NCBI GenBank assembly: GCA_934201705.1
Contig: CAKPXF010000005.1
Coordinates: 25,291-89,290, forward strand
DNA: 64,000 nucleotides
Direction: 5' to 3'
Origin: an uncultured Bacilli bacterium
GTDB lineage: Bacteria > Bacillota_I > Bacilli_A > RFN20 > CAG-631
Below are positions 1,741-64,000 of this stretch, in pieces; position 1 is the first letter of the stretch, and the number at the start of each line of letters is the position of its first letter. The notes beneath the pieces are model-generated. The model saw only the letters and a program-made list of their open reading frames with translations. It searched no databases and was not told the origin of the DNA. Both the position numbers and the translations under genes were made by a program.

Positions 1741-1931
1741 TAAACAAAAAAATACCTTTTATTTTCTAAGGACGTAATTATACGCGGTACCACCTTAGTT
1801 CATAGTATATCTATGCTCTTAATTAAAAAAATTTCGCTCCAAGATAACCTTCAAAGTACTATACTATCCATTTCCATCAGCCAGGACTTTCTATAAGTTT
1901 TTATACTTTTACTCCTTCTTTTCATTGCTTA
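1741..1931 (-). promoter_or_regulatory. T-box leader upstream of valS
   Basis: The minus strand contains the conserved T-box sequence GGTGGTACCGCG (plus-strand cgcggtaccacc at 1783-1794). Stem-I-like AGAAAGTCC...GGCTGATGGAA lies upstream. A GUU (Val) triplet followed by A sits in ...UUGAAGGUUAUC..., where a specifier loop is expected. A U-run precedes the RBS. Confidence 0.75.
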
Positions 1932-1937
1932 TTTTTT

Positions 1938-11737: not shown

Positions 11738-11758
11738 ATTTGAGAATGGTTCTCAAAT
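11738..11758. promoter_or_regulatory. 9-3-9 perfect inverted repeat, candidate Fur-family operator
   Basis: ATTTGAGAA-tgg-TTCTCAAAT lies immediately downstream of the -10 element and upstream of the GAGGTG RBS. Confidence 0.6.
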
Positions 11759-11772
11759 TTGCGAGGTGTACT

Positions 11773-12147
11773 ATGAAATATAATACAAAGCAAAGACAAA
11801 TAATTATTGATTATTTTAATAAAAATAAAAATGCAATTTCCATTAAAGATTTGTATTTAATATTAAAAGATAATATCTCGAAAGCAACACTATATCGTGA
11901 AATTGATAATTTAGTAAATGAAGGAAAATTACTAAAAATTTATAATAGTGACAAAAATATTTATGAATATGAATTAAGTGATTTTAAAATTGGCTGCGAT
12001 AAGCACTTACATTTAAAGTGTGATGTTTGTGGAAAAATTTATCATCTAGATGATTCTATTTCTTCATCTTTAAATTCAATTCATTTTATGATTAATTATT
12101 CGCAATCATTTATTCATGGTGTTTGCCAGGCTTGTAATAAAAAGTAG
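11773..12147 (+). CDS. Fur family transcriptional regulator (Fur/Zur/PerR type)
   Basis: The track ORF begins at a TTG (11740) inside the operator. ATG 11773 has a GAGGTG RBS. Winged helix (ATLYREIDNLVNEGKL) plus Cys pairs CDVCGK...CQAC. Confidence 0.8.
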   Translation: MKYNTKQRQIIIDYFNKNKNAISIKDLYLILKDNISKATLYREIDNLVNEGKLLKIYNSDKNIYEYELSDFKIGCDKHLHLKCDVCGKIYHLDDSISSSLNSIHFMINYSQSFIHGVCQACNKK

Positions 12148-12155
12148 GTGGTAAT

Positions 12156-13016
12156 ATGAAAGAGGCTATATTTGATGCTTTTAATGATACAATAATCACC
12201 TTTTTAGTTATTTTTATTTTATATGTTTTAATTTCATTTATTGAAACTAAATTAACTAGCAAATTTAAAAAATCCGCAAAGTATTCGCCGATAATTGGAG
12301 CTGGAATCGGCTTAATTCCTCAATGCGGCTTTAGTATAGTTGCTAGTGATTTATATTTAAAAAATTATATATCGATGGGCACCTTAATTGCTATTTTTAT
12401 ATCTTGTAGTGATGAGGCATTACCAATTTTACTTGCATCTCCTAGTAGTATGATTATGTGTATTCCATTACTTTTAACTAAATTTGTTGTAGCTAGTGTT
12501 TTTGGCTATTTAATTGATTTTATCTTTAAAAAGCCAAAGTTAATTATTAATACTAATAATGAAGAAATAGAAAAAAATGATTATTGTTGCTTTCATCATA
12601 ATCACTTTCAAAGTAAAATTAAAGAGCACTTAGTTCATCCACTTATTCACTCACTTAAAATTTCACTTTATGTTTTTATTGTTAATATAGCCTTTGCTTT
12701 ATTAATTTATTATATAAAAGAAGATAATATTAAAGCATTTATTAATAATAATATTTATTTAACTCCTCTTCTTTCAAGTATTGTAGGTTTAATTCCTACA
12801 TGTGCCTCATCAATTATAATAACTGAACTTTTTGTTTCAAAGGCTTTAACATTTGGAGCAACTATTTCAGGATTAATTTGTAATGCTGGGTTAGGATTAA
12901 TATATTTATTTAAAAAGAAAGAAAATTTTAAAAACAATTTATTAATTGTTTCATTATTATTTACAATAAGCTTAATTGTTGGCTATGCTATATTATTTAT
13001 TGAAATAAATATTTAA
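12156..13016 (+). CDS. polytopic membrane protein, probable ArsP_2-type (10-TM putative metal exporter) family
   Basis: Two homologous halves each carry a G-L-I-P-x-C-x-x-S motif (GLIPQCGFS, GLIPTCASS), with a His-rich loop CCFHHNHF between them. The gene starts 9 nt after the Fur-family gene. The family name is from memory. Confidence 0.55.
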   Translation: MKEAIFDAFNDTIITFLVIFILYVLISFIETKLTSKFKKSAKYSPIIGAGIGLIPQCGFSIVASDLYLKNYISMGTLIAIFISCSDEALPILLASPSSMIMCIPLLLTKFVVASVFGYLIDFIFKKPKLIINTNNEEIEKNDYCCFHHNHFQSKIKEHLVHPLIHSLKISLYVFIVNIAFALLIYYIKEDNIKAFINNNIYLTPLLSSIVGLIPTCASSIIITELFVSKALTFGATISGLICNAGLGLIYLFKKKENFKNNLLIVSLLFTISLIVGYAILFIEINI

Positions 13017-24834: not shown

Positions 24835-26499
24835 ATGGATAAAATATTAAGATTTTCTTCAATTATTGATTTTTTTTCAAAAAATGATTTAGTTTTTAGC
24901 TATAATATGGAAGTGCCATATACTGATACTTATAGCGTTGATTTTAAAAACTTAGAAAGTGTTTCAATTTTAGATGATAACAATAACGAAATAATTAAGT
25001 CAAAGGAATCATTTAAAATTGATTTAGCTAAAGGGCAAAGAATAGTTGTTATTGTAAATAGAGCTACTTCAGCAAATATTAATATAAAGGTTAGTGCTAT
25101 TCATAATAAAGCTATCTTACCATATGAGCCTTATAACAAAGTTAATACAAGGAAGCTTAGAACTCATGGAAACGACAATGTAGACCCATTAACACCAGCT
25201 GATATATCTTCAGTTAAAAGGGATGATGGAAACGGCTTATATATTAATTGTAATAATCCAGAAAAATTAACTAAAGATGATATTGGTAAAGCCTTATCAA
25301 GAGTTGATATTTCCAACAAAAAGGTTTTCTTTACCTTTGAGCATAATAATTTAGATGAGCCTTTTTATTATGGCTATCAAGTAAAAAACACTGGAAACGA
25401 GGACATTTATGTTACTGTTTTAAATATGGGCTTTCAACTAGATGGACAAGGCTGTTGGTTAGGTGAAAGAGAATGGGTTGATTTTTATAATGCTAATTTT
25501 AGATATGATGGCTCTTTATGGAGCGATAAGCAAAAAGAAACATTTATAGCTTATTTTAATTTTTCAAACAATTACAAAGCTCCTCGCTATCAACCAGTAA
25601 CCTATAGAATCCCAAAGAATAAATATATTTATATAATGGGTGGTACTACTAAGGATGCTTATAAGCATATTAATGTTTTTAAAACAGCTAATAAAAAAAT
25701 AAGCGGCGGTTGCTCTAATGGGGTTGTTTTATTTGATGTTATTGGTAAGGCTGAAGGATCATTTTTTGTTTATACTGATGAAAAGCAAATATTAAATAAT
25801 AATACTCATCAAGGCTATATAGTAAATAGAAACGACCATGACTATGGCTCACAATATGTAGGCTATGATACTTGTCATGGTGTTGTTGATACAAATATTA
25901 CCTTCACATTTAATGATTTAACGCCAAGTCAGGATTTACCAGTAAGATTTTATAATTATCATGATGATGATTTAAAAGCTAAAATTGGTAAACCATATTT
26001 AAAATTAAATAGCACACCACATTTAGTTGAAAAAAAATATTGGGTAACTCATATTAATCCTCAAGAAACATATGATGGTGTTGGAACTGATATGACTAAA
26101 TACTATACAATAAATGATAAAAAAGAAGATATTTGTATAGATGCTGATCATTTAGATGGTCATGGTAATGTTTCAAATATTGGAAACTGGATGATGGATT
26201 ATATGGATTATTTCACATTTGTAAATCAAGGTGATAAGGATAGAACTATTAATATCAATATGAGAAATACTGGCTCATTATGTGTTTTAATTCGTGATAA
26301 AAATGGCAAGCTAATTAAATCATCACCAATGTTTACAATCATGATAAAACCAACTGATAAGAGTGAGGAATATTACTTAGATAATGATTTTAATTATAGT
26401 GTTGTAGTAAAAGCTCATTCTATCAAGCAATTCATTGTTGAATATAACTTACTTGCTAATTCTTGTGGCCATGTAACTCATAAGGTTACTTTAAAATAG
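24835..26499 (+). CDS. uncharacterised-family protein with no signal peptide (paralog of 18572..20362)
   Basis: AAGGAG RBS. Collinear similarity to 18572..20362 over essentially its whole length. Confidence 0.7.
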   Translation: MDKILRFSSIIDFFSKNDLVFSYNMEVPYTDTYSVDFKNLESVSILDDNNNEIIKSKESFKIDLAKGQRIVVIVNRATSANINIKVSAIHNKAILPYEPYNKVNTRKLRTHGNDNVDPLTPADISSVKRDDGNGLYINCNNPEKLTKDDIGKALSRVDISNKKVFFTFEHNNLDEPFYYGYQVKNTGNEDIYVTVLNMGFQLDGQGCWLGEREWVDFYNANFRYDGSLWSDKQKETFIAYFNFSNNYKAPRYQPVTYRIPKNKYIYIMGGTTKDAYKHINVFKTANKKISGGCSNGVVLFDVIGKAEGSFFVYTDEKQILNNNTHQGYIVNRNDHDYGSQYVGYDTCHGVVDTNITFTFNDLTPSQDLPVRFYNYHDDDLKAKIGKPYLKLNSTPHLVEKKYWVTHINPQETYDGVGTDMTKYYTINDKKEDICIDADHLDGHGNVSNIGNWMMDYMDYFTFVNQGDKDRTININMRNTGSLCVLIRDKNGKLIKSSPMFTIMIKPTDKSEEYYLDNDFNYSVVVKAHSIKQFIVEYNLLANSCGHVTHKVTLK

Positions 26500-37672: not shown

Positions 37673-37726
37673 AAAACTCCCTTGAAAAAGTGTGGTAAAA
37701 TAGTAAAAACTCCCTTGAAAAAGTGT
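37673..37726 (+). repeat. two 21-bp direct repeats, 33-bp period, upstream of the DUF4143 ATPase gene
   Basis: AAAACTCCCTTGAAAAAGTGT at 37673-37693 and 37706-37726. Confidence 0.85.
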
Positions 37727-37785: not shown

Positions 37786-39135
37786 ATGCTTAAACGAAAA
37801 ATATTTGATGAATTAGTTAAATGGAAAAATAATACGTTAACTAAAAAGAAAGCTTTAGTAATAAAAGGATTAAGACAAATTGGAAAAACATTTATTGTTA
37901 AGCAGTTTGCTAATGAGTATTACGAAAACCAGATATACATTAACTTTAAAAACAATGATGATATAAAAGCAGTATTTGAAGAAAATTTAAATGTTGATAG
38001 AATATTAATAGATTTATCAGCTAAAATGCCAAATATTAAAATAATTCCTTACAAAACAATAATTATTTTTGATGAAATTCAAGAATGTGCCAATGCAAGA
38101 GCTTCAATAAAGCCATTTGTTGAAGATGGTAGATTTGACATTATAGCAACTGGATCACTTCTTAAAATAAAAGGGTATAATAGAAAAAAAGGAAAAGGCG
38201 TGCCAACAGGCTTTGAGCGCATAATATATATGCATCCACTTGATTTTGAAGAATTTTTATGGGCAAAGGGTGTAGGTGATAATGTTATTTCTTATTTAAA
38301 GCAATGCTTTGAAGAGAAAAAGCAAGTCTCTAAAGCAACACATGAAGCTATGATAAGATACTTTAAAGAATATATTTGTGTTGGTGGATTACCTGAGACT
38401 GTTAATACATTCATTAATACAAATGATATGAATGAAGTATACAAGGAACAAAGAGATATAATTGAAGAATATAAAGATGATTTTGGAAAGCACTTAGATA
38501 AAAATGAAAATGAGGAAGTTGATGAATTATTACTTGCAAGAATAGAAGAAGTATTTGATTCTATACCAAGTCAGCTTGCTAAGGAAAATAAAAAATTTCA
38601 ATATTCAAAAATAAAGGTTAAAGGAAGAAGTGCAGATTATAGAGAAGCTATACAGTGGTTAGTTGATGCTGGCATCATTTCTCAATGCTTTAATCTTTCA
38701 AATTTAACTCTTCCACTTGAAGGAAATAAAATTGATAATATATTTAAAATTTATATGTCTGACAGTGGATTATTTGTATCAATGCTAGAAAAAGGAACTG
38801 CAGGAGAAATATTATCTGGAAATCTTTATGGCTATAAAGGTGCTATATTTGAAAATATCATTGCTGATGCTTTTTCAAAAATGGGAAGAAAATTATATTA
38901 TTTTCATAAGGATTCTGGATTAGAAGTAGATTTTATAACAAAATACAAAGGTGAAGTAACTTTAATTGAAGTAAAAGCAACAAACGGAAATACAAAATCA
39001 TCAAATATAATACTTGATAATTATAATGAATATCATGTTAAGAAAATCATTAAATTTGGTGAATATAATATAGGTGAAACTAATTCTAAACTAACTCTTC
39101 CTTATTATATGGTTTTTTTATTAAATGAATATTAA
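37786..39135 (+). CDS. AAA-family ATPase with DUF4143-type C-terminal region (AAA_14/DUF4143 architecture)
   Basis: Walker A GLRQIGKTF and Walker B IIIFDEIQ. The conserved tail EVDFI...IEVK is typical of this family. Paralog of 57773..59107. Confidence 0.75.
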   Translation: MLKRKIFDELVKWKNNTLTKKKALVIKGLRQIGKTFIVKQFANEYYENQIYINFKNNDDIKAVFEENLNVDRILIDLSAKMPNIKIIPYKTIIIFDEIQECANARASIKPFVEDGRFDIIATGSLLKIKGYNRKKGKGVPTGFERIIYMHPLDFEEFLWAKGVGDNVISYLKQCFEEKKQVSKATHEAMIRYFKEYICVGGLPETVNTFINTNDMNEVYKEQRDIIEEYKDDFGKHLDKNENEEVDELLLARIEEVFDSIPSQLAKENKKFQYSKIKVKGRSADYREAIQWLVDAGIISQCFNLSNLTLPLEGNKIDNIFKIYMSDSGLFVSMLEKGTAGEILSGNLYGYKGAIFENIIADAFSKMGRKLYYFHKDSGLEVDFITKYKGEVTLIEVKATNGNTKSSNIILDNYNEYHVKKIIKFGEYNIGETNSKLTLPYYMVFLLNEY

Positions 39136-40530: not shown

Positions 40531-41826
40531 CTATTTGCAGCTACTAACAAATACAGCTGCCCCTAAAGCTGCTTCTTCTTGACTTGATGACATTTGTATT
40601 TTTTGCTTAAAGGTTTTACTAAAGCAATCCTGTAAAAATACATTTTTTCTTAAGCCATTACCAGAGCCAATAAAATTCATTTTTTCTTGATGGTCTTTTC
40701 CATATAGCATATACATATCATATAGTTCATTAGCCATACCATACATTAAAGAATAAATTATATGTAATGGTGTAAAATTATCTACAGAAATATTTGTTAT
40801 TGAGGCCTTTAAAGTAGGCTTTTCTCTTGTGCCTTGAAATAAAGGAGTAAATGTTGGTAAATTATTTGGAGCTTCATTATCTTTAAGTAATGATGACATT
40901 TCATCATAAACATTATCTTTATCAACATTAAACATTAAAGCGCATTTTTGAAAAAATCCTTCTAAAATTGCATATGATCTTCCACCACATAATGGTGCTC
41001 CTACTAATAAATAGCCCTCTTGAGGAAATGGACGAGTTTCTAAGCCTTCACACACCTTATATTTTTTTGTATAAATTGAAATTTGGCTACCTGTTCCAAC
41101 ATTTGCCAAAATTGAATTAACATTTCCTAAAGTTGCTCCTATAAAGCTTGCTTGATTATCACCAATTGCTGGATAAACATTAATATTTCTATATTTTCCA
41201 ATGGCTATTGAATCAACGACCTTAGGAAGAAATGTTAAAGAAATTCCAACCATTTCTATTATTTTTTTATCAAATTGTTTTTTTTCAACATCAAACATAC
41301 CAAAGCTTGCAGCATCACTTGCATCAACTAATGGTTCTTTATTGTTTGCTAAAACCATAGCAATATAATCATGAATTGTTGAAAATACTGCTGCATCATT
41401 AGGAATTAAATTATTAACCATATTGTAAAAATGAGTAACAAGACCAAAGCCTGTTGCACATTTATAGTTAGTTTTATTTTTTAAATATTCAGCATATGTT
41501 AAATTATCCTTATATATAAGGTTTCCTCTACCATCCTGCCAAATATAAAGAGGGCTTACTGGGTTTCCATTTTTATTTAAGTATAAAATACCATGCATTT
41601 GACCAGTAATACCAATTCTTTCAACATCAGGATATTTATTTAATAATTCATCAACAATACTTAAGGAAATTTCTTTGATTTTTAATGGCGATTGAATTCT
41701 TTCAAAAGTATTTGAAGTTTTAATAAATGAAGTATTATCCTTTGTAATGCTTTCAATAACTTTTTTATTTTCTGAAACCACAGCACAAATTGTTGTTGTG
41801 CCAATATCAAGTCCTAAGGTTTTCAT
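40531..41826 (-). CDS. FGGY-family carbohydrate kinase
   Basis: ATG 41826 follows GAGGTG, which overlaps the GRE stop codon. N-terminus LGLDIGTTTICAVV, then GITGQMHGILYL and IWQDGRG blocks. Confidence 0.7.
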   Translation of the reverse strand: MKTLGLDIGTTTICAVVSENKKVIESITKDNTSFIKTSNTFERIQSPLKIKEISLSIVDELLNKYPDVERIGITGQMHGILYLNKNGNPVSPLYIWQDGRGNLIYKDNLTYAEYLKNKTNYKCATGFGLVTHFYNMVNNLIPNDAAVFSTIHDYIAMVLANNKEPLVDASDAASFGMFDVEKKQFDKKIIEMVGISLTFLPKVVDSIAIGKYRNINVYPAIGDNQASFIGATLGNVNSILANVGTGSQISIYTKKYKVCEGLETRPFPQEGYLLVGAPLCGGRSYAILEGFFQKCALMFNVDKDNVYDEMSSLLKDNEAPNNLPTFTPLFQGTREKPTLKASITNISVDNFTPLHIIYSLMYGMANELYDMYMLYGKDHQEKMNFIGSGNGLRKNVFLQDCFSKTFKQKIQMSSSQEEAALGAAVFVSSCK

Positions 41827-41834
41827 TATACACC

Positions 41835-44210
41835 TCAGCAAAAAGTAGAATTAGGATCTAAACGCAAGATTATATCCTTTTGAATTTCTGGACTTAAATC
41901 TAAGAAATTAACAAATGTTCCGTGAATTCTCATAATGTATACGCCATTAGGAGCGTATTTTTTAGGATTAGCTAAAACCTTCTTTAATGTTTCAGCTGTA
42001 GTTACGTTAACATATAAATAGAATGGTGCTCTACTTTTATTTTCGCTATTAAAGAATAAAGGCTTAATAACTCTATTATAAAATTCAATACACTTTTCTT
42101 CATAAGTGTCTTTAGTAAAATATTTTGGATCTATTCCAAAGTGTGAAGCACAGCCACCATTCATTTTACAAAATGGCAATTTCATAGTTGATAATGTTCT
42201 AAAGCCTAAGCCATTTCCAGCTGTTGAAAATAATGGATCTATTCCATAGCCTAATTGCTCGCGAGCCCCTCTTCCATCTGGAGTAGCACCAACCCAATAG
42301 CCATAAGTTAAATGCGTTGAAGGTGAGCTCCAATCTGGATTGAATGGATTACCTAAATAATTTTTAAGTGATAGCACTATATCAGAAACTATATTTACAA
42401 TATTAGCTGCTTCATCATCAACTTCAGGAATGTTATTTCCAAATTTTGGACAGCTCTTTAAGTATTCTTGTAATTCCTCATAGCCTTTAAAGTTAGCTTT
42501 ACAAGCTTCAATTAGATTTTTAGCATCATTTGGTCTTTCCTTTAATAAATGATCTATAGCGATAAATGAATCAGCTACAACTGATAAGCCATGAATTAAG
42601 CAACCACTACCATTATATTTAGTACCTTGCTCGTTAGTATCTCTTACATCAATTGCACTATCAATTCCACCTTCAAAGCATGAAAGGAATGGAACTGGAA
42701 GTAATGATAAGGCTTTTGATGCTAAGTTTGCTGCATCGGCCATTTTTTTACAAAACCATTTTAAGTTATTATAAAACAATTCACGAATATTTTTTAATAT
42801 ATACATTGGTTCATAATTAGTTTGTGGTCCAATTTCTTCATTAGTAATAAATGATTTTCCGCCACTTAAAGTTAGTTCAAGAACCTTACCCATGTTTAAC
42901 CAGCTATTAGTTGTATTAGCATTTTCCTTCCCCATGATTAATGGTTCTTGGCAACCAGCAACAGAATAATCAGCTAAGTCATCTTCATCTATACCTTTTT
43001 CTTTTAATGTTTCAAATAAAGAATCATCATTAAAGATTGATGGAGTTAAGCATCCTGGAGTAAAGAAGAAGCGACCTAACTCACTATATAATTTTTCAGG
43101 TGTATTTTTATGAAGCTTTACTGATAAAATAGGTTGAGGTAAATTCATATCATAATAAGCATCTAATATTGCATATGACATTTCATTAGTTAAATCATTA
43201 TTATATTTATCTTTGCCACTAATTAAAACATTTTGTGATATAGCCCAGCTTCTTTCACCTACATTGAAAAACACTAAGAAATGCTTAAATAATGCAGCTG
43301 CTTCTTTTCTTGATAGATTATCATGCTTCCTATATGGTTCAAACACTCTATCAATATTACCAACTGAAAAAGCAAATGGATTTGGCGATTGCTCAATACA
43401 CATAACCTGCCATAATAATAAATATGCTTGCATTGCTTCATATAATGTTGATGCTCCATTATATGGAACATTGTTTAATGTTTCAATAATTAATGCTAAT
43501 TCATTTTGTCTTATATCATCCTTAGAAGGAAGCTGCTCTAAAGCTATTTTTTGATATCTTTTAGCAAGCTTTAAGCAACAATTTAATGACTTTTTCATAG
43601 CTATTAAATTGTTTTGCTTTTTTTCATTTAATTCTTCTTTTTCAAGTCTTTCATCAATTCTTGTAATTAAGCCTTTAATACCGTACTTTAAAGCATATCT
43701 AAAATCCGGAATCATATGACCAGTTACTTGTTCAATAAAGAAAGCAACCTCACCAGTATATTCTTCATATTTTCCATAAACCTCATTTAAGGCTTTAACA
43801 TATGGTGATTTTGAAGCTGCATCCCGTTGCTTTTTAATTCTTTCTTCATCTACATCTTTAGTAGGAGTGGCATAATCATATACTTCAAGGGGATCACAAT
43901 ATCCCTTAAATGTTTCAACCTTAAAAGCGGGATTAATAAGCGCATAGCTTGCTGCAAAGGCATCGCGTTGTGTGCCAACAAAGATTTGATTATCACTAAT
44001 ACTAAGAGGTAGCTTTTCTATTACCTCTTCAAGTTCTAAAGAAGCTTTAATTTCTAAATTTGTTTCTTTAGTTTTTAAATCAAAGTCCGTAACAATTTCT
44101 TTTGATAAAAACCAGCCATTTAAAACCTTATGGCTTTCTCTTTCTTCTTTATATAAAGCTTTTGCTTTAGTTGTTAATTCTATATCATTATAAATATCAA
44201 ATACTTTCAT
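41835..44210 (-). CDS. glycyl radical enzyme, PFL2/dehydratase-lyase (Cys-x-Glu) class, unknown substrate
   Basis: 791 aa. Thiyl loop SVAGCQEP (Cys codon at 42953..42951, residue 420). C-terminal glycyl-radical domain NGVYIMRIHGTFVNFLDLSPEIQKDIILR (Gly764 at 41921..41919). Confidence 0.85.
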   Translation of the reverse strand: MKVFDIYNDIELTTKAKALYKEERESHKVLNGWFLSKEIVTDFDLKTKETNLEIKASLELEEVIEKLPLSISDNQIFVGTQRDAFAASYALINPAFKVETFKGYCDPLEVYDYATPTKDVDEERIKKQRDAASKSPYVKALNEVYGKYEEYTGEVAFFIEQVTGHMIPDFRYALKYGIKGLITRIDERLEKEELNEKKQNNLIAMKKSLNCCLKLAKRYQKIALEQLPSKDDIRQNELALIIETLNNVPYNGASTLYEAMQAYLLLWQVMCIEQSPNPFAFSVGNIDRVFEPYRKHDNLSRKEAAALFKHFLVFFNVGERSWAISQNVLISGKDKYNNDLTNEMSYAILDAYYDMNLPQPILSVKLHKNTPEKLYSELGRFFFTPGCLTPSIFNDDSLFETLKEKGIDEDDLADYSVAGCQEPLIMGKENANTTNSWLNMGKVLELTLSGGKSFITNEEIGPQTNYEPMYILKNIRELFYNNLKWFCKKMADAANLASKALSLLPVPFLSCFEGGIDSAIDVRDTNEQGTKYNGSGCLIHGLSVVADSFIAIDHLLKERPNDAKNLIEACKANFKGYEELQEYLKSCPKFGNNIPEVDDEAANIVNIVSDIVLSLKNYLGNPFNPDWSSPSTHLTYGYWVGATPDGRGAREQLGYGIDPLFSTAGNGLGFRTLSTMKLPFCKMNGGCASHFGIDPKYFTKDTYEEKCIEFYNRVIKPLFFNSENKSRAPFYLYVNVTTAETLKKVLANPKKYAPNGVYIMRIHGTFVNFLDLSPEIQKDIILRLDPNSTFC

Positions 44211-44223
44211 ATTTTTCCTCCAT

Positions 44224-44946
44224 CTATGTATTAATTACTTTAATATTGCTATCTTCTAAAATCTTTTTAAAATTTAAGACATCATCATTTGTTATTCTTG
44301 CTTTTTCATCCATTTTATAAACAAGCCCAAGCTTTTGATACTTGCTTATTCCAAATTCATGATACTTTAAAAGCTCAATTGTTATTTTGTCATTAATCTT
44401 TAAATTTTCAAAACACTTAACAAAATTTTTAGCATCAATAGGTGAACTATTAAAGCCTCCAATAAGTGGTATCCTTAATAATAATGGCTTATTACTTTTT
44501 ATTCTACTTACGGCATTTTTTAAAGTGCTTTCATTAGATAAGCCCGTGACTTTTTTATGAATCACTGGATTATAATGCTTTATATCCATTATTAATAAAT
44601 CAAGGTAAGGAAATAATTCACTTAGCCTATCACTTATCCCATTAGTTTCAATACAAGTATTTATGTTATTTTCCTTAAGCTTAATTAAAGCTTCCTTTAA
44701 TTCATCAAATTGGATAGTTGCTTCCCCACCAGTAAAAGTAACACCTCCATTATCAAACATCATAGCTTTACTTCTTAATACTTCTAAAACTATTTCATCA
44801 ACAGTATATTCTTTTCCATTTTTAAAAGAAAAGCCTTCTGGATTTGAGCACCATGGGCAACGCAAATTACAGCCACACAAATGATAAACTAGTCTATTTC
44901 CAGGACCATCTTGTGAAAAATTAAAGCCTTTTTGAAATATTACCAT
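44224..44946 (-). CDS. glycyl-radical enzyme activating protein (radical SAM, PflA-size)
   Basis: CX3CX2C motif CNLRCPWC, and GGVTFTGGEA SAM-binding block. 240 aa, so it lacks the extra ferredoxin-like insert. Confidence 0.85.
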   Translation of the reverse strand: MVIFQKGFNFSQDGPGNRLVYHLCGCNLRCPWCSNPEGFSFKNGKEYTVDEIVLEVLRSKAMMFDNGGVTFTGGEATIQFDELKEALIKLKENNINTCIETNGISDRLSELFPYLDLLIMDIKHYNPVIHKKVTGLSNESTLKNAVSRIKSNKPLLLRIPLIGGFNSSPIDAKNFVKCFENLKINDKITIELLKYHEFGISKYQKLGLVYKMDEKARITNDDVLNFKKILEDSNIKVINT

Positions 44947-55397: not shown

Positions 55398-55559
55398 TTA
55401 ATTTTTTAAAGCATTAACATATTTTGTAATTATTTGCTTATTTATCAATGGCAAAATAATTCCTTCATCAACCATTCGAAGAATAAGTCCAGGATTAGAA
55501 TCTCCTTTAAGTGCTGCTGAAACTAAAACGTTTGTATCAATTACAACATAGTATTTCAT
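55398..55559 (-). pseudogene. truncated PIN-domain toxin (53 codons)
   Basis: Below the ORF-track cutoff. ATG 55559 overlaps the relB/dinJ stop (ATGA). Reads MKYYVVIDTNVLVSAALKGDSNPGLILRMVDEGIILPLINKQIITKYVNALKN*. The N-terminal D-T-N-V motif is typical of PIN, but full-length PIN toxins are ~130 aa. Confidence 0.6.
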
Positions 55560-55840
55560 TCTTCTCTTGCCCTTGCTATTTCTTCATTAATTTCATCAAG
55601 GCTCTTTTTTGAATTATTATATTCTTTAGAAATAGCATTCATTTTTAAAAGTGCTTGCATTCCCTTTGATTCTTTTTTTTCTTTTAAAACCATTTCAAAT
55701 GGAATTCCGTTATTTAAAACTAATTTAGCTAAACACATTCTCATATATGTTTGAAGATCTATTCCTAATTTTTTACATATTAATGTTGCTTCAACTTTTA
55801 ACGATTCATCAGCTCTAAATTGAATAAAAGTACTTGCCAT
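55556..55840 (-). CDS. RelB/DinJ family antitoxin
   Basis: IQFRADESLKVEATLICKKLGIDLQTYMRMCLAKLVLNNGIPFEM is a typical DinJ ribbon-helix-helix N-terminus. Confidence 0.8.
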   Translation of the reverse strand: MASTFIQFRADESLKVEATLICKKLGIDLQTYMRMCLAKLVLNNGIPFEMVLKEKKESKGMQALLKMNAISKEYNNSKKSLDEINEEIARAREE

Positions 55841-57772: not shown

Positions 57773-59107
57773 CTAATTATTATTAATATTATCAATAAAT
57801 TGTTTCAATAAAAACATTGTAAAATATGGTAAAGTATAAAATTTTCCATTATATCCTATATTTTTATTTGCAAATTTTATACCATATTTTACATCATTGT
57901 ATTTATTTTTATTAATTAAGTTATTAAGTGATGCTGTGGCATTATCACTGGATTTTATTTCAATTGGAATCAAACTATCTTTATCTCGTATAAAAAAATC
58001 TATTTCAATTTGTGAGCGTTCATCACTATAATAATATAATTTATAGCCATCCTTTATTAGCATTTCGCTAGCAACGCTTTCAAAAATTGCGCCTTTAAAT
58101 GTATTAAAGTTTTTATTGATTCTTAAATCATTTTGTACCTCATCATCAAGTGAAGCAATCAATAAACCAATATCATGGTAATATACCTTATATTTATATG
58201 GATTATAATTACCAGCAAGTGGCAAAGCAACTTCGTTTAAGCAATAGCAAAGATTTACAATTCCCGCATTAGATAGCCATTCAAAAGTACCAATATAATC
58301 TCTATTTTTAGCATTTTTACTTATTTTTGTTATTTGATATCTTTTATTTTCCTTACCTAAAAAATATGGTATATTTCTATATACATTTAATATCTTACCT
58401 TTTTCTATTCCTTTAGCATATTTAGTAATATCTTCTTCATAATCATTTATTAATTGCCTTTGCATAGTAAGAATATTTGAAAAGTTTTTATTATCTATAA
58501 ATTTTTTTACTATTGCTGGCATACCTCCAGTTATCAAATAATCGATAAAGCATTCTTGATAAACTTTTAATTCTAACTCTGAAAATGGAGTTAAAGAAAT
58601 TAAATGATTTAAAATATCGTTAATTTGTTTTTCATTATAATTTCTTGCCCATAATATTTCTTCAAAATCCATAGAATGCATAATGTATTCTTCTTTATAT
58701 CCAACACTATTTAATTGTATTTCATTATAGTTAATTCCCATTAATGATCCTGAACATATAACATCATATCTCCCATCTAATTTAAATTGTTTTAATGAAC
58801 TCATCCCCTTTGGACATAGCTGAATTTCATCAAAAAATATAATAGTATTATTATTTTCAAAAGTTGCAGATGGCATTATTAAAGAAATATTCTTTATAAT
58901 ATTATCTACATCATACCCATTATCAAAAATTGTAAAAAAAGCATCATTAGTAGAAAAATTAATTTCTATTACATTTTTATAATTTTCTTTTGCAAATTTA
59001 AGTATTGAATATGTTTTGCCAATTTGTCTAGCACCTTTAACAACAAGTGGTAAATGATCTTTTCTATTCTTCCATTCTTTTAAAAATATTTCAATTTTTC
59101 TTTTCAT
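57773..59107 (-). CDS. AAA-family ATPase with DUF4143-type C-terminal region (paralog of 37786..39135)
   Basis: Walker A GARQIGKTY and Walker B IIFFDEIQ, tail EIDFF...IEIK. I prefer ATG 59107 (GAGG RBS; MKRKIEIFLKEW aligns with MLKRKIFDELVKW of the paralog). Confidence 0.75.
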   Translation of the reverse strand: MKRKIEIFLKEWKNRKDHLPLVVKGARQIGKTYSILKFAKENYKNVIEINFSTNDAFFTIFDNGYDVDNIIKNISLIMPSATFENNNTIIFFDEIQLCPKGMSSLKQFKLDGRYDVICSGSLMGINYNEIQLNSVGYKEEYIMHSMDFEEILWARNYNEKQINDILNHLISLTPFSELELKVYQECFIDYLITGGMPAIVKKFIDNKNFSNILTMQRQLINDYEEDITKYAKGIEKGKILNVYRNIPYFLGKENKRYQITKISKNAKNRDYIGTFEWLSNAGIVNLCYCLNEVALPLAGNYNPYKYKVYYHDIGLLIASLDDEVQNDLRINKNFNTFKGAIFESVASEMLIKDGYKLYYYSDERSQIEIDFFIRDKDSLIPIEIKSSDNATASLNNLINKNKYNDVKYGIKFANKNIGYNGKFYTLPYFTMFLLKQFIDNINNN

Positions 59108-59127
59108 ACTATACCTCGCCATAAATA

Positions 59128-59245
59128 TTCTACACGTTTTACAATATAATTATAACTTAATTTTACACCTTTTACAATAAAGTATTGAACTGATTTTACA
59201 CCTTTTACAATAACAAGATAATTTGATTTTACACCTTTTACAATA
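59128..59245 (-). repeat. four 19-bp direct repeats with exact 33-bp period, overlapping the ATPase promoter
   Basis: Plus-strand TTTTACACCTTTTACAATA at 59161, 59194 and 59227, and the variant TTCTACACGTTTTACAATA at 59128. In gene orientation the unit is TATTGTAAAAGGTGTAAAA. The promoter TTGTAA (59177..59172), 17-nt spacer, TATAAT (59154..59149) uses repeat 2 as its -35. Confidence 0.9.
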
Positions 59246-59387
59246 TAAATGCTTCCTATAATTAATTAAGAAACATTAATTATTTTGTATTTTAATAATA
59301 TACCAATAGCAATTTTTAATATTTATTTTATTGTTACTTCAAAATAAATAAAAAGCATTTTAAGTTTTTCCTTAATAATGCTTTTCA

Positions 59388-60554
59388 TTAAAATATTTCT
59401 TTAACAAGTTTTTTTGAAAACTCATAAAATGAATTAAGTAAAATTAATTCTTTATCAATATCAGTTACTAAATTATATGTTAAGCCATCATAATTAATAA
59501 TTACACTTTTTTTAAAATGCTTACATATTGAATCACTACTTATAACAATAACATCTTTTCTTTTATTATTATCAATAAATTCATCAGCATTAATTTTTTC
59601 ATAATTAGTACTTTCATACATTGAATAATAAGTAACATTATTATAATTAAATAATTTAAAATAATCATTAAATAGGTTTAAATCATCTTCATTAGCATAA
59701 ACTAAAATCCTTTTATTAGTAAAATGCAAGACATTATTTATTTGTGTATATACATCATTATTTATTTTTAATAATTCTTTCTTTTTAAAAGGAACATTAA
59801 ATTCTTTATTAATTGTATTTAAATATTCATTAATACTTTGATAATTAATTGAATTAAAATATAAATAATCAATATCATACTTTTCTTTTAAGAATTTAGC
59901 TAGTTTTAAAGCAGTAAGTGATGTAATTATAATAAAATTAACCTTACTTAGCTTTAAATAGTCATCATATTTTATTTTATTTGAATCAACAAGTAAACAT
60001 TTTAAATCAAAATACTGATTTATAAATTTTTTAATTTCTATTTTTTTATTATAATTATAAATAGAATTATCTCCACCTATAATAGCATAAGAATTTATAA
60101 CTTTATTATCATTTGAATAGTTTAAAGATGTTAAATAGTTATAAAAATCATTTAAACCAGAATAATATGTTTCATGCATTTTTACATTAATAGTAAATAT
60201 ATTTATGTTAAACATTTTTTTATATTTATTAGCGAGTAAATTTAAATCAATTCCTAGCATTAGAACTAAGCTTGATGGTAGTAAAAGAATATGTTTATAG
60301 CCATCCTTAATAGCTTCATTAATAGAATTAATTGCCTTAGTAAAATCACCAATTGAAAGTTCTACTTCATTAATAGAAGTAGTATACAAATTGTTTTTTA
60401 TTCTAAATGGATACTTATAAGCTAAATCACCATGATTATAAACACCATGCCCTGAGGTTGAAATTTCAATTACTGCTAAATTATCTATTAAAGCAAATTT
60501 ATTATAAAGAGCCATTCTAGCACTTTTTAAAGTAAAATATTTATTTAGTCCCAT
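59388..60554 (-). CDS. nitrogenase component-1-like (NifK/NifN/BchB-position) protein, cluster cysteines absent
   Basis: Blocks in the expected order: ISTSGHGVYNHG (in place of H-G-P-x-G-C), TSINEVELSIGDFTKAINSINEAI (the E-x-D-x-V-F-G-G-like block) and LLLPSSLVLMLGIDLN (in place of S-T-C...IGDD). The start overlaps the upstream gene by 10 nt. Confidence 0.6.
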   Translation of the reverse strand: MGLNKYFTLKSARMALYNKFALIDNLAVIEISTSGHGVYNHGDLAYKYPFRIKNNLYTTSINEVELSIGDFTKAINSINEAIKDGYKHILLLPSSLVLMLGIDLNLLANKYKKMFNINIFTINVKMHETYYSGLNDFYNYLTSLNYSNDNKVINSYAIIGGDNSIYNYNKKIEIKKFINQYFDLKCLLVDSNKIKYDDYLKLSKVNFIIITSLTALKLAKFLKEKYDIDYLYFNSINYQSINEYLNTINKEFNVPFKKKELLKINNDVYTQINNVLHFTNKRILVYANEDDLNLFNDYFKLFNYNNVTYYSMYESTNYEKINADEFIDNNKRKDVIVISSDSICKHFKKSVIINYDGLTYNLVTDIDKELILLNSFYEFSKKLVKEIF

Positions 60555-61558
60555 AATAATACCTCATCAATTATATAGCATACCTTATCAAAATTAGAAA
60601 GATCATATAGTTTTTCATCATCAATAACTAAGTTATAGGTATTAGCGTTTTTATTTAAAGATAAAGAAGAATCAAATGATATTAAGCAATCATCATTTAA
60701 AGTCTTTAAGGCATTATAGACATTAATATTATAATTACTAGTAATTATTTTATTAATTTTTATTTGATAATCATAAAATAAAGTAGCTATATAAGGAGCA
60801 TAAAATGATTTAATTGATATCATTTTATATTTACTTGCAAATGCTTGTATTTTCTTTTCAATCTTTGAAATTTTATTTAAAGAAATATTTAATTCCTTAA
60901 AATAAGCTTTATAAAATGATAATGGTTGAATAATACTATTATTAATAATTATATGATTAGTAAATGAATTAAATAAAGCTAAATATTTATTATTATTAAT
61001 AATTATTGTTTTATAATGTAAGGCTTTATTTAAATTAGTTATGATATTTTTACTATAATTATTAATTACTATTTTTTCTTTATTAATATTATTATCATTT
61101 AAAAAGCATTTTAATGATAAATAAAAATCACTTAAAATATCATAGGAATTACAAGATGTATACTCTTCAACATTTAAAAAGATTAGCTTTTCATATTTAT
61201 TTACTAATGACTTGATATTTAAATTATTAATTTGAGGAATACAAGTTGATAAAACTAAAGTATTTCCTTTTAAGCTATTCATATATTTTAAGGTTTTATT
61301 TAATTCATCTAAGGAAGCAAAAACTATTTCTTTATCTGTTAATAAATAGCTATAATTTTTAACATTTTTATTAAAGATTACCTTTTTTGAATAAAATGAA
61401 CATTCAAAAACACCAATAACTAAAACATTAAAAGAGCTAAACATTGTTAACTCTTCAAGTATTACATCCATTTTACAATGTGTAGCTAAGCAATTCTTAT
61501 AGCTATTAAGATATTTGTATTTTACTAATTTTTTATTTACTATAAAATTATTTTTCAT
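60545..61558 (-). CDS. nitrogenase component-1-like (NifD/NifE/BchN/CfbD-position) protein
   Basis: Numbered from the track TTG start (61576): Cys34 (ATHC), Cys59 (IGVFEC) and Cys112 (LSTCIPQINNLNI). The 25/53 spacing mirrors the three cluster Cys of N/E/D-type subunits. YLLTDKEIVFASLDELNKTL block. Likely ATG 61558. Confidence 0.65.
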   Translation of the reverse strand: MKNNFIVNKKLVKYKYLNSYKNCLATHCKMDVILEELTMFSSFNVLVIGVFECSFYSKKVIFNKNVKNYSYLLTDKEIVFASLDELNKTLKYMNSLKGNTLVLSTCIPQINNLNIKSLVNKYEKLIFLNVEEYTSCNSYDILSDFYLSLKCFLNDNNINKEKIVINNYSKNIITNLNKALHYKTIIINNNKYLALFNSFTNHIIINNSIIQPLSFYKAYFKELNISLNKISKIEKKIQAFASKYKMISIKSFYAPYIATLFYDYQIKINKIITSNYNINVYNALKTLNDDCLISFDSSLSLNKNANTYNLVIDDEKLYDLSNFDKVCYIIDEVLLWD

Positions 61559-62291
61559 TGGCAATTTCCTTTGCAAGTTTCTTATATAGCTTACTCATAC
61601 TTGAGTCACTAAAGGCTTCAACAACTGTTTTATTTAGTTTTTCAGCTTCTTGTACTATTTTATCACGTGGCAAGGTAAAAAAAACATTGGCATTCATTTC
61701 TTTTGCTGCTTTTAATACAATTTCATCTTCATTTTCAATATTCTTTTTATTAACAATTAAGCCTTTAAACTTAGCATAGCCCTCTTGTGTGTTATCATTT
61801 ACAGCTTCAATTATATTATTAGCAGCATATAAAGCCATCATCTCACCACTGGTTACTACATATAATTCATCAGCATAGCCATTTCTAATTGGCATAGCAA
61901 AGCCACCACAAACAACATCTCCTAAAACATCATATAAAATAAAATCTGGTTGATATTTTTCTATTAAATTAAGCTCATTAATTTTTTCAAAAGCAGCGAT
62001 GATGCCTCGTCCAGCGCAACCACAGCCTGGACGAGGACCACCTGCTTCTAAGCAATAAACACCATCACTTCCTAAATGTAAAATATGTTTTTCGTCATCA
62101 ACACCTAATCTAATAGCATCTAAAACTGTCATTATTCTTTGACCATTATTATGTAAGATAGTTGAATCAGCCTTAGGATCACAACCTATTTGAAAGACTT
62201 TATAATTTAATTCTACTAAAGCTTTAGCTAGATTTGAAACTGTAGTAGATTTTCCAATTCCACCTTTTCCATAAATTGCAATTTTTTTCAT
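61548..62291 (-). CDS. NifH/BchL/CfbC-family ATPase (nitrogenase Fe-protein-like)
   Basis: Full-length collinearity with NifH from memory: AIYGKGGIGKSTT, IGCDPKADST, GGPRPGCGCAGRG, YDVLGDVVCGGFAMPIR, VTSGEMMALYAANNI. Both [4Fe-4S] Cys are conserved. Confidence 0.9.
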   Translation of the reverse strand: MKKIAIYGKGGIGKSTTVSNLAKALVELNYKVFQIGCDPKADSTILHNNGQRIMTVLDAIRLGVDDEKHILHLGSDGVYCLEAGGPRPGCGCAGRGIIAAFEKINELNLIEKYQPDFILYDVLGDVVCGGFAMPIRNGYADELYVVTSGEMMALYAANNIIEAVNDNTQEGYAKFKGLIVNKKNIENEDEIVLKAAKEMNANVFFTLPRDKIVQEAEKLNKTVVEAFSDSSMSKLYKKLAKEIANEK

Positions 62292-62295
62292 AAAA

Positions 62296-64000
62296 TTATT
62301 CTAATGTTCCTTCTTCACTATTAATAATAAATTCAAAGAATGATCCATAGAATGAATTAGCATCAACATTAAATACTAAAGAGTATCTAGCATTTAAATT
62401 GCCATATCCATCATCAAAGCTAAATAATAATGAATCAGCAAGTAGTGTTACTTTAGCACCTTCATAGCCTTTTTCATCTTCAATACTTAATTTTAATAAT
62501 TCATTAAAAAATGCTTCATTTACATCATAATTGAAACGACTTTCGCCACTTAATGATGTAGCTTCAAGGTTATTAAATGAAATTCCTTTAAATTCAGCAA
62601 TTGAAGTATATTTAGTAGGAAGATCCTCGACCATATATGGATCATTATGAGCACCATCAAAATAAATTGTTGCTTTCTTTACTGTACCATTAATTAAAGC
62701 ATAAAAGATAACATTTGTATTAAATCCTTCTTCATCTTCATTATAGTTTTCATATTCACTATAATAATATTTATCAGTAACATAAGTTGTAAATGTTTTA
62801 TTATTATAAATCTTTGTAAAGCTATACGAAGTTATTGTACTATTTTTAACAAATGAAGCAATATCTTCTTTACTTATAAAAGCATCACTTGAACTTAAAA
62901 ATTCATCAATAACGCTATAGCTTGCATTATTAATTTCACTAACAGTTGCGCTGGCTTTACATTCATTTAATAATAATGTTTCATCAGTAATTGATGAAAG
63001 CTTTAATGCATCATAAGCTTTAAATGTAATAGTATCCTTAGTAGTAGTAACGCTTAAGCCACTAACACTAGCTAAATCTAAGCCTTCAATAAATTTTAAA
63101 TATGAAGGGTTAGAAATGTAATATTCATTAGATGCAGCAATACGAGTAAATGATAATGTATCATAATCTTCAGTTGTTGTTAATGAAGAATAATCACTAA
63201 CTAAAGATGCTACTCTTGAGATATATCTTTGACTAGCACCAGTAATAGTAACACAAGGTGCTATTAATTTAACCTTACCTGAAGTAATTGTAAAATCATA
63301 CAAGAAGCTTTCAATTTTTATTACACCTTTATTATCAGTAATATTATAGTAATAAGAAGAATTATAAACATATTCTTTAGTTTCATTATTAGAAGAAACA
63401 CTTAATTTATAAGAGTTTAAGGTTGAACTATATTCATCACCACTATAAAGCTTGTTATAAGCGTTTTTAATATCTTGAATGCCATTTAAATTATATGAAG
63501 CATCTTTTGCTTCAAGTTCATTATATCTTAAAGGTAATAGTTTAATAATATTACTTAAATCACTCGTTAAAGCCTTATCATTATTAACTAATTCTTTAGC
63601 TAAATTATAGATGGTTTTAAATTTAGTTAAGCTATATGCTGTATAATTTCCTTCTTCATTTAAAACATTTTTATATTGATTAATTAATGTATTTAATTTT
63701 TCCTTTAAAGCATTTGTTTGATTATCAAAGCTACCAATACCCACATTTTCATATTCTTTAACAACACCAGTTAAAATTAAGCCATCACGCGTATTAGAAT
63801 TTTTATATTTACTCCATAATGAAATAACAAGCTCATTATTAGCATTAACCTTTAATGATACCTTATTAATATCATCCTTTGTATAATTTGTAGTATTAGC
63901 TACATCAAAGAAATAAGCTAAAGCATTTTTTGTTAAAGGTGATTCTTTAATGTCAATAAAGTATTCATCAATTTGTGAATTTAATGAAAGATTATCCTTT
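62296..64000 (-). CDS. large N/S/T/Y-rich protein of unknown function, 5'-partial (frame open to the right window edge)
   Basis: The track start (GTG 63744) is an artefact. I translated 63745-64000 in the same frame and found no stop (...KDNLSLNSQIDEYFIDIKESPLTKNALAYFFDVANTTNYTKDDINKVSLKVNANNELVISLWSKYKNSNTRDGLILTGVVKEYEN-VGIGSF...). The gene stops 4 nt before the NifH-like ATG. Confidence 0.6.
   Translation of the reverse strand, partial: KDNLSLNSQIDEYFIDIKESPLTKNALAYFFDVANTTNYTKDDINKVSLKVNANNELVISLWSKYKNSNTRDGLILTGVVKEYENVGIGSFDNQTNALKEKLNTLINQYKNVLNEEGNYTAYSLTKFKTIYNLAKELVNNDKALTSDLSNIIKLLPLRYNELEAKDASYNLNGIQDIKNAYNKLYSGDEYSSTLNSYKLSVSSNNETKEYVYNSSYYYNITDNKGVIKIESFLYDFTITSGKVKLIAPCVTITGASQRYISRVASLVSDYSSLTTTEDYDTLSFTRIAASNEYYISNPSYLKFIEGLDLASVSGLSVTTTKDTITFKAYDALKLSSITDETLLLNECKASATVSEINNASYSVIDEFLSSSDAFISKEDIASFVKNSTITSYSFTKIYNNKTFTTYVTDKYYYSEYENYNEDEEGFNTNVIFYALINGTVKKATIYFDGAHNDPYMVEDLPTKYTSIAEFKGISFNNLEATSLSGESRFNYDVNEAFFNELLKLSIEDEKGYEGAKVTLLADSLLFSFDDGYGNLNARYSLVFNVDANSFYGSFFEFIINSEEGTLE

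Follow-up and report, generated by a model that had tools for sequence, protein, structure and literature searches.

A highly diverged nitrogenase-like gene trio closes a conserved iron-chelate importer operon in uncultured gut Bacilli

In a 64,000-nt stretch of contig CAKPXF010000005.1 from an uncultured Bacilli bacterium (positions 25,291 to 89,290; hereafter the window), three coupled minus-strand genes encode a real, highly diverged nitrogenase-like ATP-driven reductase that combines an intact NifH-type Fe protein (H) with two subunits of the nitrogenase component-1 fold (D and K). These are the closing genes of a conserved 10-gene iron-chelate importer operon that extends beyond the window, the G+C content of which is approximately 26%. 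The carriers are uncultured Bacilli of human-gut metagenomes (Hadza and other cohorts), with one relative found on a 798-kb contig. Judging from the gene context, the enzyme is likely to work on the imported ligand; the more specific proposal, that it is an ATP-driven reductase acting on an imported iron chelate (a haem-like tetrapyrrole or a siderophore) and freeing iron without oxygen, would stand at about even chances.

The gene trio and its importer operon

The three genes are as follows.

61548-62291, minus strand: NifH-like Fe-protein/ATPase H, 247 aa (PF00142 match and motifs)
60545-61558, minus strand: D-like component-1 subunit, 337 aa from the ATG at 61558 (family profile and AlphaFold2 fold)
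59388-60554, minus strand: K-like component-1 subunit, 388 aa (Pfam Oxidored_nitro match)

The H stop and D start overlap by 11 nt (ATGAAAAATAA) and the D stop and K start by 10 nt (ATGGGACTAA), in agreement with the coordinates and junctions given in a preliminary description of this DNA, and each start is preceded by a purine-rich run resembling a ribosome-binding site. The mechanical open reading frame (ORF) of D is slightly longer, at 343 aa, with a TTG start at 61576. Comparison of three species gave ratios of nonsynonymous to synonymous substitution (dN/dS) of 0.05-0.07 for H, 0.16 for D, and 0.07-0.12 for K (0.05-0.17 over the trio as a whole), with equal lengths and no indels, which indicates that all three genes are functional and under purifying selection.

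H matched PF00142 in Pfam with an E value of 5.5e-83 and possesses the P-loop (GKGGIGKS, residues 8-15), switch I (DPKADS, at residue 38), and the two [4Fe-4S] ligands, Cys92 in CAGRG and Cys128 in DVLGDVVCGG, so its earlier identification as a NifH-family protein with intact motifs is upheld. Against PDB sequences, H scored 228 bits to MarH, 228 bits to NifH, and 135 bits to BchL. Among NCBIfam models, it came nearest to CfbC, with 308.6 of the required 402 bits, and to nifH, with 299.8 of the required 394. Close relatives of H number in the thousands, the nearest being short clostridial NifH proteins with 60-75% identity.

The two other proteins had been described as short, diverged component-1-like subunits. 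K bears this out directly, with 45.5 bits against Pfam Oxidored_nitro (gathering score 28.6), whereas D alone remained below the gathering score (17.6 bits, E = 0.0019). A profile of eight D-like family members matched NifE (7.5e-9), NifD (approximately 4e-8), and ChlN (4e-6) in PDB, and an AlphaFold2 model of D built with 30 homologues showed a predicted local distance difference test (pLDDT) score of 92.2 and a predicted template modelling (pTM) score of 0.88. The best 50 PDB matches of this model in Foldseek were all nitrogenase component-1 chains, including NifD, ChlN/BchN, NifE/N, MarD/K, and VnfD, at 6-12% identity and with no subfamily prominent. Taken together, the family profile, the model, and the fold matches settle the fold of D as that of component 1.

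Profile alignment placed three cysteines of D, Cys28 (HC), Cys53 (EC), and Cys106 (TC), on the cluster ligands of NifE/NifD; the NifE residues concerned are its [4Fe-4S] ligands. The HC...EC...TC motif was present in 48 of 50 D-like family members, one of the two exceptions being N-terminally truncated, and no conserved Cys or His was found past residue 106 in the 30-50 D-like sequences compared. The K profile matched NifE (1e-24), NifD (1e-20), and ChlB (9e-11) in PDB. In the profile alignment, the 'taGh' segment of K was aligned to 'GPIGC', with His36 opposite NifD Cys88, a position that we take to be equivalent to NifK Cys95 and BchB Asp36. BchB Asp36 is the non-Cys ligand of the cluster of dark-operative protochlorophyllide oxidoreductase (DPOR). 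No Cys occurs at the three NifK P-cluster positions of K, where the aligned residues are Ala, His36, and Ser-Ser. The G-H pair is kept in three of the subtypes introduced below (type B, P0169, and P0170), with T-T-H in the IsdE-linked type A.

Because D carries three invariant cysteines and K no ligand Cys, the trio is predicted to have neither a P-cluster nor FeMo-co but one asymmetric [4Fe-4S] cluster between the subunits, as in DPOR and NifEN. The alignment suggests that its ligation is possibly 3Cys+1His, with K His36 as the fourth ligand; the AlphaFold2 model of K, computed from 9 close sequences, was poor (pLDDT 54.8). A ligand pattern of three Cys on one subunit and one residue on the other, together with NifE as the best sequence match of both subunits, would also suit a role like that of NifEN, as a scaffold or maturase that uses imported iron to build or mend an Fe-S cofactor and is not a substrate reductase. 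We regard this as very improbable, since the operon holds neither a NifB-like radical-SAM gene nor a client enzyme and D lacks any conserved second-site Cys or His.

The preliminary description had taken the trio for a stand-alone, orphan module. This does not hold: it was an artefact of the window edge, as the operon continues past base 64000. Two further features of the window delimit the trio.

62296-64000, minus strand: window portion of the 3' part of a gene for a surface lipoprotein of approximately 993 aa (ORF 62296-63744; full gene L001:5278-8259)
59341-59385, minus strand: probable A+T-rich intrinsic terminator, read by eye

The lipoprotein gene ends 4 nt before the H start and runs off the window end. 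On the window's 182-kb contig, it belongs to a same-strand block encoding two FecCD permeases, an ATP-binding cassette (ABC) ATPase, transglutaminase-like proteins of 460 aa and 450 aa, the 993-aa FIVAR protein, H, D, and K, and a relative with 83% identity shows this block starting with a Peripla_BP_2 binding lipoprotein after a 230-nt non-coding region. The genes for this substrate-binding protein (SBP) and the first permease lie outside the window and locus L001 and were read in the relative L007, with the SBP gene at L007:6156-7151. The conserved 10-gene order is thus FhuD-like binding lipoprotein, two FecCD permeases, FecE-like ATPase, two transglutaminase-like lipoproteins, FIVAR lipoprotein, and H-D-K, with all genes on the same strand and overlapping or a few nt apart. 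The importer genes gave domain matches to PF01497, PF01032 (twice), and PF00005 and a FecE match of 295 bits, the permease and ATPase being closest to FecD and FecE. A FecCD-type ABC importer, with its Peripla_BP_2 lipoprotein, FecCD permeases, and FecE-like ATPase in the same unit, is accordingly the operon partner of the trio.

The gene-neighbourhood comparison proposed earlier was carried out across relatives and revealed identical order and tight spacing on the window's contig and in at least three related species. The 10-gene order, including the large lipoprotein, also occurs in an organism of 47-49% G+C (L019/L020/L024). Both transglutaminase-like lipoproteins are retained there at only 45% and 40% identity, which indicates that the surface proteins belong to the system. 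The genes 3' of K vary, with an AAA_14/DUF4143 gene here, hrcA-grpE-dnaK in L003/L007, and an aldo-keto reductase gene in L005; since the flanking genes differ between genomes, the block is a unit that ends at K. The putative terminator beyond K consists of an 8-bp stem (AAAGCATT/AATGCTTT) with a 16-nt loop, followed by the T-run TTATTTATTTT; it was not called by the consensus scan, which demands at least three G-C pairs.

All three extra proteins of the operon, the two transglutaminase-like proteins and the large one, have lipoprotein signal peptides, and the Cys-His-Asp triad is kept in both transglutaminase-like proteins. The large lipoprotein has the lipobox LISC and matched FIVAR with 29 bits in the window lineage and 66.9 bits (three repeats) in L019. 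It contains two copies of a module of approximately 380 aa (L001:5278-8259; L019:4632-8171; e.g., '...GYVHSFS...'), each placed after FIVAR repeats. This module, which had no Pfam match and no PDB sequence match, is a candidate for a domain that captures the ligand. Neither the large-lipoprotein fragment nor one of the transglutaminase-like lipoproteins gave anything informative when searched against PDB sequences.

No characterised family fits the trio, which would be expected of an orphan, context-independent nitrogen fixation-like (NFL) system or of a cryptic nitrogenase. Either is hardly credible: the importer operon context is conserved in at least eight lineages, only three of six P-cluster Cys are present, FeMo-co ligands are missing, and no nifB/E/N was found in the scanned window parts. 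The earlier statement that nifB/E/N, tetrapyrrole, and sulfur-salvage genes are lacking agrees with Pfam tables covering most ORFs between approximately 2 and 64 kb, and no radical-SAM or NifB-like gene was found in any operon examined.

Sister subtypes, cargo, and proposed function

K had only 10 relatives among 5.8 billion proteins in a word-indexed search, none of them below 70% identity, and tblastn with K against plasmids gave no match. An exhaustive HMMER search of 1.84 billion cluster representatives with D returned 57 proteins at E<=1e-3, of which 28 reached E<=1e-10. In a neighbour-joining tree, the window D belonged to a short clade of approximately 310-345 aa, here called type B, with forms of approximately 400-450 aa outside it. 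Loci L008/L018 and L011 showed a 7-gene core, SBP-FecCD-FecCD-ABC-H-D-K. In the assembly collection, 436 blocks are indexed for the L008 NifH, so the L008 system is common; of the two contigs shown, one is from an ENA assembly and one from a human-gut metagenome.

A second subtype, type A, was found in Gottschalkia acidurici 9a and on contigs with the NifH of Alkaliphilus crotonatoxidans and Tepidimicrobium xylanilyticum. Its layout (L010, L012, and L013) is a divergent AraC gene followed by (flavodoxin)-H-SBP-FecCD-ABC-D-K, the flavodoxin being closest to the BilS type. The type-A SBP matched Lmo2184 of Listeria (1.4e-54) and IsdE of S. aureus (4e-48) and exceeded the cut-off of the NCBIfam IsdE equivalog (302 vs 298.65). 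The residues aligned to IsdE Met78 and His229, which we take to be the haem axial ligands of IsdE, are kept at all three loci. Upstream of the type-A operons, Fur boxes of the Bacillus type with a perfect match (TGATAATNATTATCA, 15/15) occur at L010:9819-9833 and L013:9439-9453, and two 13/15 boxes were found in L012 (9312-9326 and 9447-9461), where Fur and ferritin genes also adjoin the operon. Judged from these matches and sites, the type-A loci are iron-regulated haem importers whose sole enzymes are the flavodoxin and the nitrogenase-like trio.

Two other subtypes were distinguished. In P0170, two FecCD permeases precede the trio; loci L030/L031 have the layout FecCD-FecCD-H-D-K. The P0169 trio (L028:422-10508 and L029) adjoins CbiM-CbiN-CbiQ-ABC, CbiK, TP_methylase, and CbiD, by gene content an anaerobic cobalamin-synthesis and cobalt-uptake cluster.

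The haem and Fur link of type A and the recurrent link to FecCD permeases point to a substrate class, namely the cargo of an iron-chelate importer. The preliminary description had called the system Nfl-like with an unknown substrate; the Nfl-type assignment stands, and for the substrate the context points to this class. A different use of a tetrapyrrole, its salvage or remodelling in place of iron release, would be suggested by the D-like subtype next to cobalamin-biosynthesis genes and CbiMNQO, and the characterised [4Fe-4S]-only nitrogenase-like enzymes of known structure all act on tetrapyrroles (PMC13474568). It seems rather improbable, because the operon and the scanned window parts contain no tetrapyrrole-biosynthesis or cofactor-using genes and the Fur boxes of the haem-linked subtype fit iron scavenging better than cofactor synthesis.

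For the window lineage itself, the cargo is less directly indicated. The type-B SBP was closest to FhuD, FhuD2, and ferrichrome binders (FhuD 4.7e-19, 72 bits), then to FeuA and YfmC, and no haem or B12 binder matched it at E<0.01. Its best NCBIfam match was the enterobactin SBP at 40 bits; all matches were weak and under family cut-offs. An IsdE-type importer was not recovered in the lineage (no IsdE match in L007, 27 bits in L008, ligand residues absent). These SBP matches, together with an ATPase and permease closest to FecE and FecD, favour ferric-siderophore processing, in which the enzyme would reduce a very low-potential Fe(III) chelate or cleave the ligand of a xenosiderophore (e.g., a hydroxamate N-O bond). 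This reading is a sub-case of the proposed iron release and is set apart because it predicts a different substrate. We consider it possible but on the unlikely side, given the weakness of the SBP matches, the sister subtypes that point to tetrapyrroles, and the absence of siderophores from the substrates of known nitrogenase-like enzymes (PMC13474568).

Several points weigh against the proposal that the trio frees iron from an imported chelate. The type-B SBP resembles hydroxamate-siderophore binders and lacks the Met and His ligands of IsdE, so haem is not directly indicated in the window lineage. Upstream of the type-B operons, consensus scans gave no Fur box and no convincing PerR, Zur, or IdeR site, and Rfam gave no known riboswitch, so that iron regulation can only be conjectured for this lineage; alignment of three type-B leaders gave no convincing common element. 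D and K of the window lineage are only 17-26% identical to those of the haem-linked subtype, so the substrates may differ, and ordinary ferric-hydroxamate reduction needs no ATP-driven reductase. Furthermore, the 5' end of the operon was observed in relatives and not on the window's own contig, the His ligand comes from profile alignment only, and the K model is poor.

The 5' region of the type-B operon (L007:6046-6121) carries an imperfect inverted repeat (GTTAGTGCTGACTAACC / GGTTAGTTAATACTAAC). It also contains the 12-mer CTAACTAGRTAT, which among 31 loci occurs elsewhere only at L030:4316-4471 (also in L031), where a different FecCD-linked nif-like operon carries it inside four 39-nt units arranged in tandem between D and K. 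The 12-mer shared by L007 and L030 could be a common operator or could have arisen by chance.

Weighing both sides, we favour a metallo-tetrapyrrole as the cargo in the window lineage, although somewhat short of even odds; a ferric siderophore is slightly less likely, and some other ligand would have perhaps one chance in four. The tetrapyrrole is ranked slightly higher because two sister subtypes and the structurally known [4Fe-4S]-only relatives point to tetrapyrroles.

In the mechanism that we propose for iron release from an imported chelate, the surface lipoproteins would serve to capture the ligand, or to free it, before its import by the ABC system. The NifH-like dimer would take a low-potential electron from ferredoxin or flavodoxin, bind MgATP, and dock on a (DK)2 core, passing the electron to the one inter-subunit [4Fe-4S] cluster held by D-Cys28/53/106 and probably K-His36. 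The cluster would pass the electron on to the imported chelate, lodged between D and K. A haem-like cargo would be reduced at its macrocycle, a siderophore at its ferric centre or its ligand, and this could destabilise the complex so that iron is freed without O2. Alternatively, the purpose of the reaction might be conversion of the macrocycle.

Extended to the whole clade, the proposal would be that nitrogenase-like enzymes of anaerobic Firmicutes, including common human-gut species, dismantle imported haem or iron chelates without oxygen, which we advance only tentatively and hold to be less probable than the proposal for the window system. If true, it would define a new functional class of the nitrogenase superfamily and a new O2-independent route of haem or iron-chelate utilisation via an inter-subunit [4Fe-4S] cluster with unusual 3-Cys/1-His ligation. 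The roles assigned to nitrogenase-like enzymes until now concern N2, the synthesis of chlorophyll and F430, and the cleavage of organosulfur compounds. Strict anaerobes cannot use haem oxygenases. If the enzyme acts on the cargo, it would show how strict anaerobes extract iron from haem or tight chelates, would extend the superfamily by a new kind of reaction and of cluster ligation, and would give a function to many abundant gut and clostridial nifH-like genes that distort nifH surveys. Such 'pseudo-nifH' genes, nifH-like but without recognisable nifDK, are abundant in Clostridia and gut samples (PMC8597730). Since diverged D and K go unrecognised, many of them may belong to systems like the trio.

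Other features of the window

At 59127-59245, just upstream of the AAA_14/DUF4143 ATPase gene at 57773-59122 (minus strand), a direct repeat (core ATTTTACACCTTTTACAATA) occurs four times at intervals of 33 nt. A paralogous gene at 37786-39135 encodes a protein of the same 449-aa length at 36% identity, and upstream of it (37673-37726) a different repeat, 21 nt long, occurs twice, again with a period of 33 nt. By their arrangement, the repeats upstream of these genes look like an iteron-like operator array.

A glycyl-radical-enzyme cluster at 40531-44946 (minus strand) comprises a PFL-like gene (41835-44210), a radical-SAM activase gene (44224-44946), and a gene for an FGGY sugar kinase (40531-41841), with a ROK regulator and a cupin isomerase transcribed divergently from it. 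The activase is the only radical-SAM gene among the scanned ORFs and is not NifB-like. A FUR-family regulator gene (11740-12147, plus strand) adjoins an ArsP_2 permease gene (12156-13016). A T-box leader at 1765-1934 (minus strand) scored 97.5 bits against an Rfam gathering score of 93, and the gene it regulates would lie towards the window start; together with the low G+C content of the window, this leader marks the DNA as coming from a Bacillota-type genome. At approximately 55398-55840 (minus strand), a RelB antitoxin gene is followed by a 53-aa PIN_3 fragment, from its truncation probably a decayed toxin-antitoxin pair.

Comparison with known systems

With a NifH-type Fe protein and two adjacent component-1 subunits, the trio belongs to the nitrogenase superfamily. 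Its exclusion from the characterised families, as the preliminary description had suggested, is confirmed by NCBIfam cut-offs, ligands, and context. A true nitrogenase was rejected, as only three of the six P-cluster Cys are present (three on D, none on K), the FeMo-co ligands NifD Cys275 and His442 have no counterpart, and no NifB/E/N occurs in the scanned window parts or operon flanks. For DPOR and chlorophyllide oxidoreductase (COR; Group V), H scored 172.8 bits to BchL (cut-off 345) and 179.7 bits to BchX (cut-off 331), no BchN/B/Y/Z model matched D or K, and no pigment genes lie nearby. CfbCD (Group IV-B) was rejected because CfbC remained at 308.6 of the required 402 bits, CfbD reached 14.5 against a cut-off of 268.4 bits, and a K-like subunit is present. 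MarBHDK/IsrBHDK (Group IV-C/IV-F) do not fit either, as no radical-SAM gene occurs in the operons examined, the transporters are of FecCD/Peripla_BP_2 type, and K has no Cys ligands.

DPOR resembles the trio as a two-component, ATP-driven system with a heteromeric D/K-type core and no P-cluster or FeMo-co. Its cluster is held by three Cys of the N subunit and one non-Cys residue of the B subunit, at the same alignment position as that predicted for K. ChlN is among the profile and fold matches and ChlB among the profile matches. However, the Fe protein of the trio is nearer NifH and MarH (228 bits) than BchL (135 bits) and is also CfbC-like, the predicted fourth ligand of the inter-subunit cluster is His instead of Asp, the D and K subunits are 90-130 residues shorter, and the trio stands in an importer operon without bch/chl context. 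NifEN, the best sequence match of both subunits, shares the three D-like Cys at NifE cluster positions; in contrast, K lacks the NifN-type Cys, NifB, NifX, and a client nitrogenase are missing, and the trio's proteins are much shorter. CfbC tops the NCBIfam matches of H, and CfbCD likewise performs simple [4Fe-4S] chemistry, in its case on a metallo-tetrapyrrole, but CfbD is a homodimer without a K subunit and Cfb is an archaeal F430-biosynthesis system. H is as similar to MarH as to NifH, and, as in the Mar/Isr systems, an ABC importer for the presumed substrate adjoins; unlike them, the trio lacks the radical-SAM B subunit, the P- and L-cluster ligands, and a sulfur-metabolism context, and its transporter is of FecCD/Peripla_BP_2 rather than Ssu/Tau type.

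The Group VI NFL systems of Elusimicrobia share with the trio highly diverged D and K subunits, a reduced Cys complement, and the absence of NifB, and a tetrapyrrole substrate has been proposed for them. By description, their defining traits are radical-SAM-rich neighbourhoods, for which the trio has no equivalent, and a NifH clade sister to Group V; the Fe protein of the trio scored far higher to NifH/MarH than to BchL in the comparison with PDB sequences.

Haem uptake by Isd/Hup combines IsdE-IsdF with the IsdG/I oxygenases, and anaerobic haem degradation is performed by ChuW/HutW. The Isd/Hup pathway parallels the working proposed for the trio operon in its order of surface capture, SBP, FecCD permease, and cytoplasmic iron-freeing enzyme, and the type-A SBP is an IsdE equivalog. 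The enzymes differ, being an O2-dependent oxygenase or a radical-SAM methyltransferase as opposed to the proposed nitrogenase-like reductase, and the trio's operon has no NEAT domains.

A published precedent is the 2012 genome paper on Desulfitobacterium hafniense, which described three nifHDK-like operons, all transporter-associated (PMC3306737). 'Nif operon IV' of strain DCB-2 (Dhaf_1810-1818) contains nifH/D/K-like, ABC transporter, and AraC genes and was induced by O2 exposure, with no function assigned (PMC3306737). As inferred from this published description, it matches the type-A layout AraC | H-SBP-FecCD-ABC-D-K; the window system differs in being the short type-B form with a FhuD-like SBP and extra surface lipoproteins. 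A Chemical Reviews survey of July 2026 includes no iron-, haem-, or siderophore-linked nitrogenase-like system, found gene context of little help, and gives the Group IV-D/IV-E clades no gene context beyond sulfur metabolism (PMC13474568). Apart from the D. hafniense operons, a full-text search of the open literature found no report linking nitrogenase-like enzymes to haem or siderophore import. What is known, therefore, is the nitrogenase superfamily to which the trio belongs; what is new is its coupling to iron-chelate import, its very short D/K pair, and its probable His ligand.

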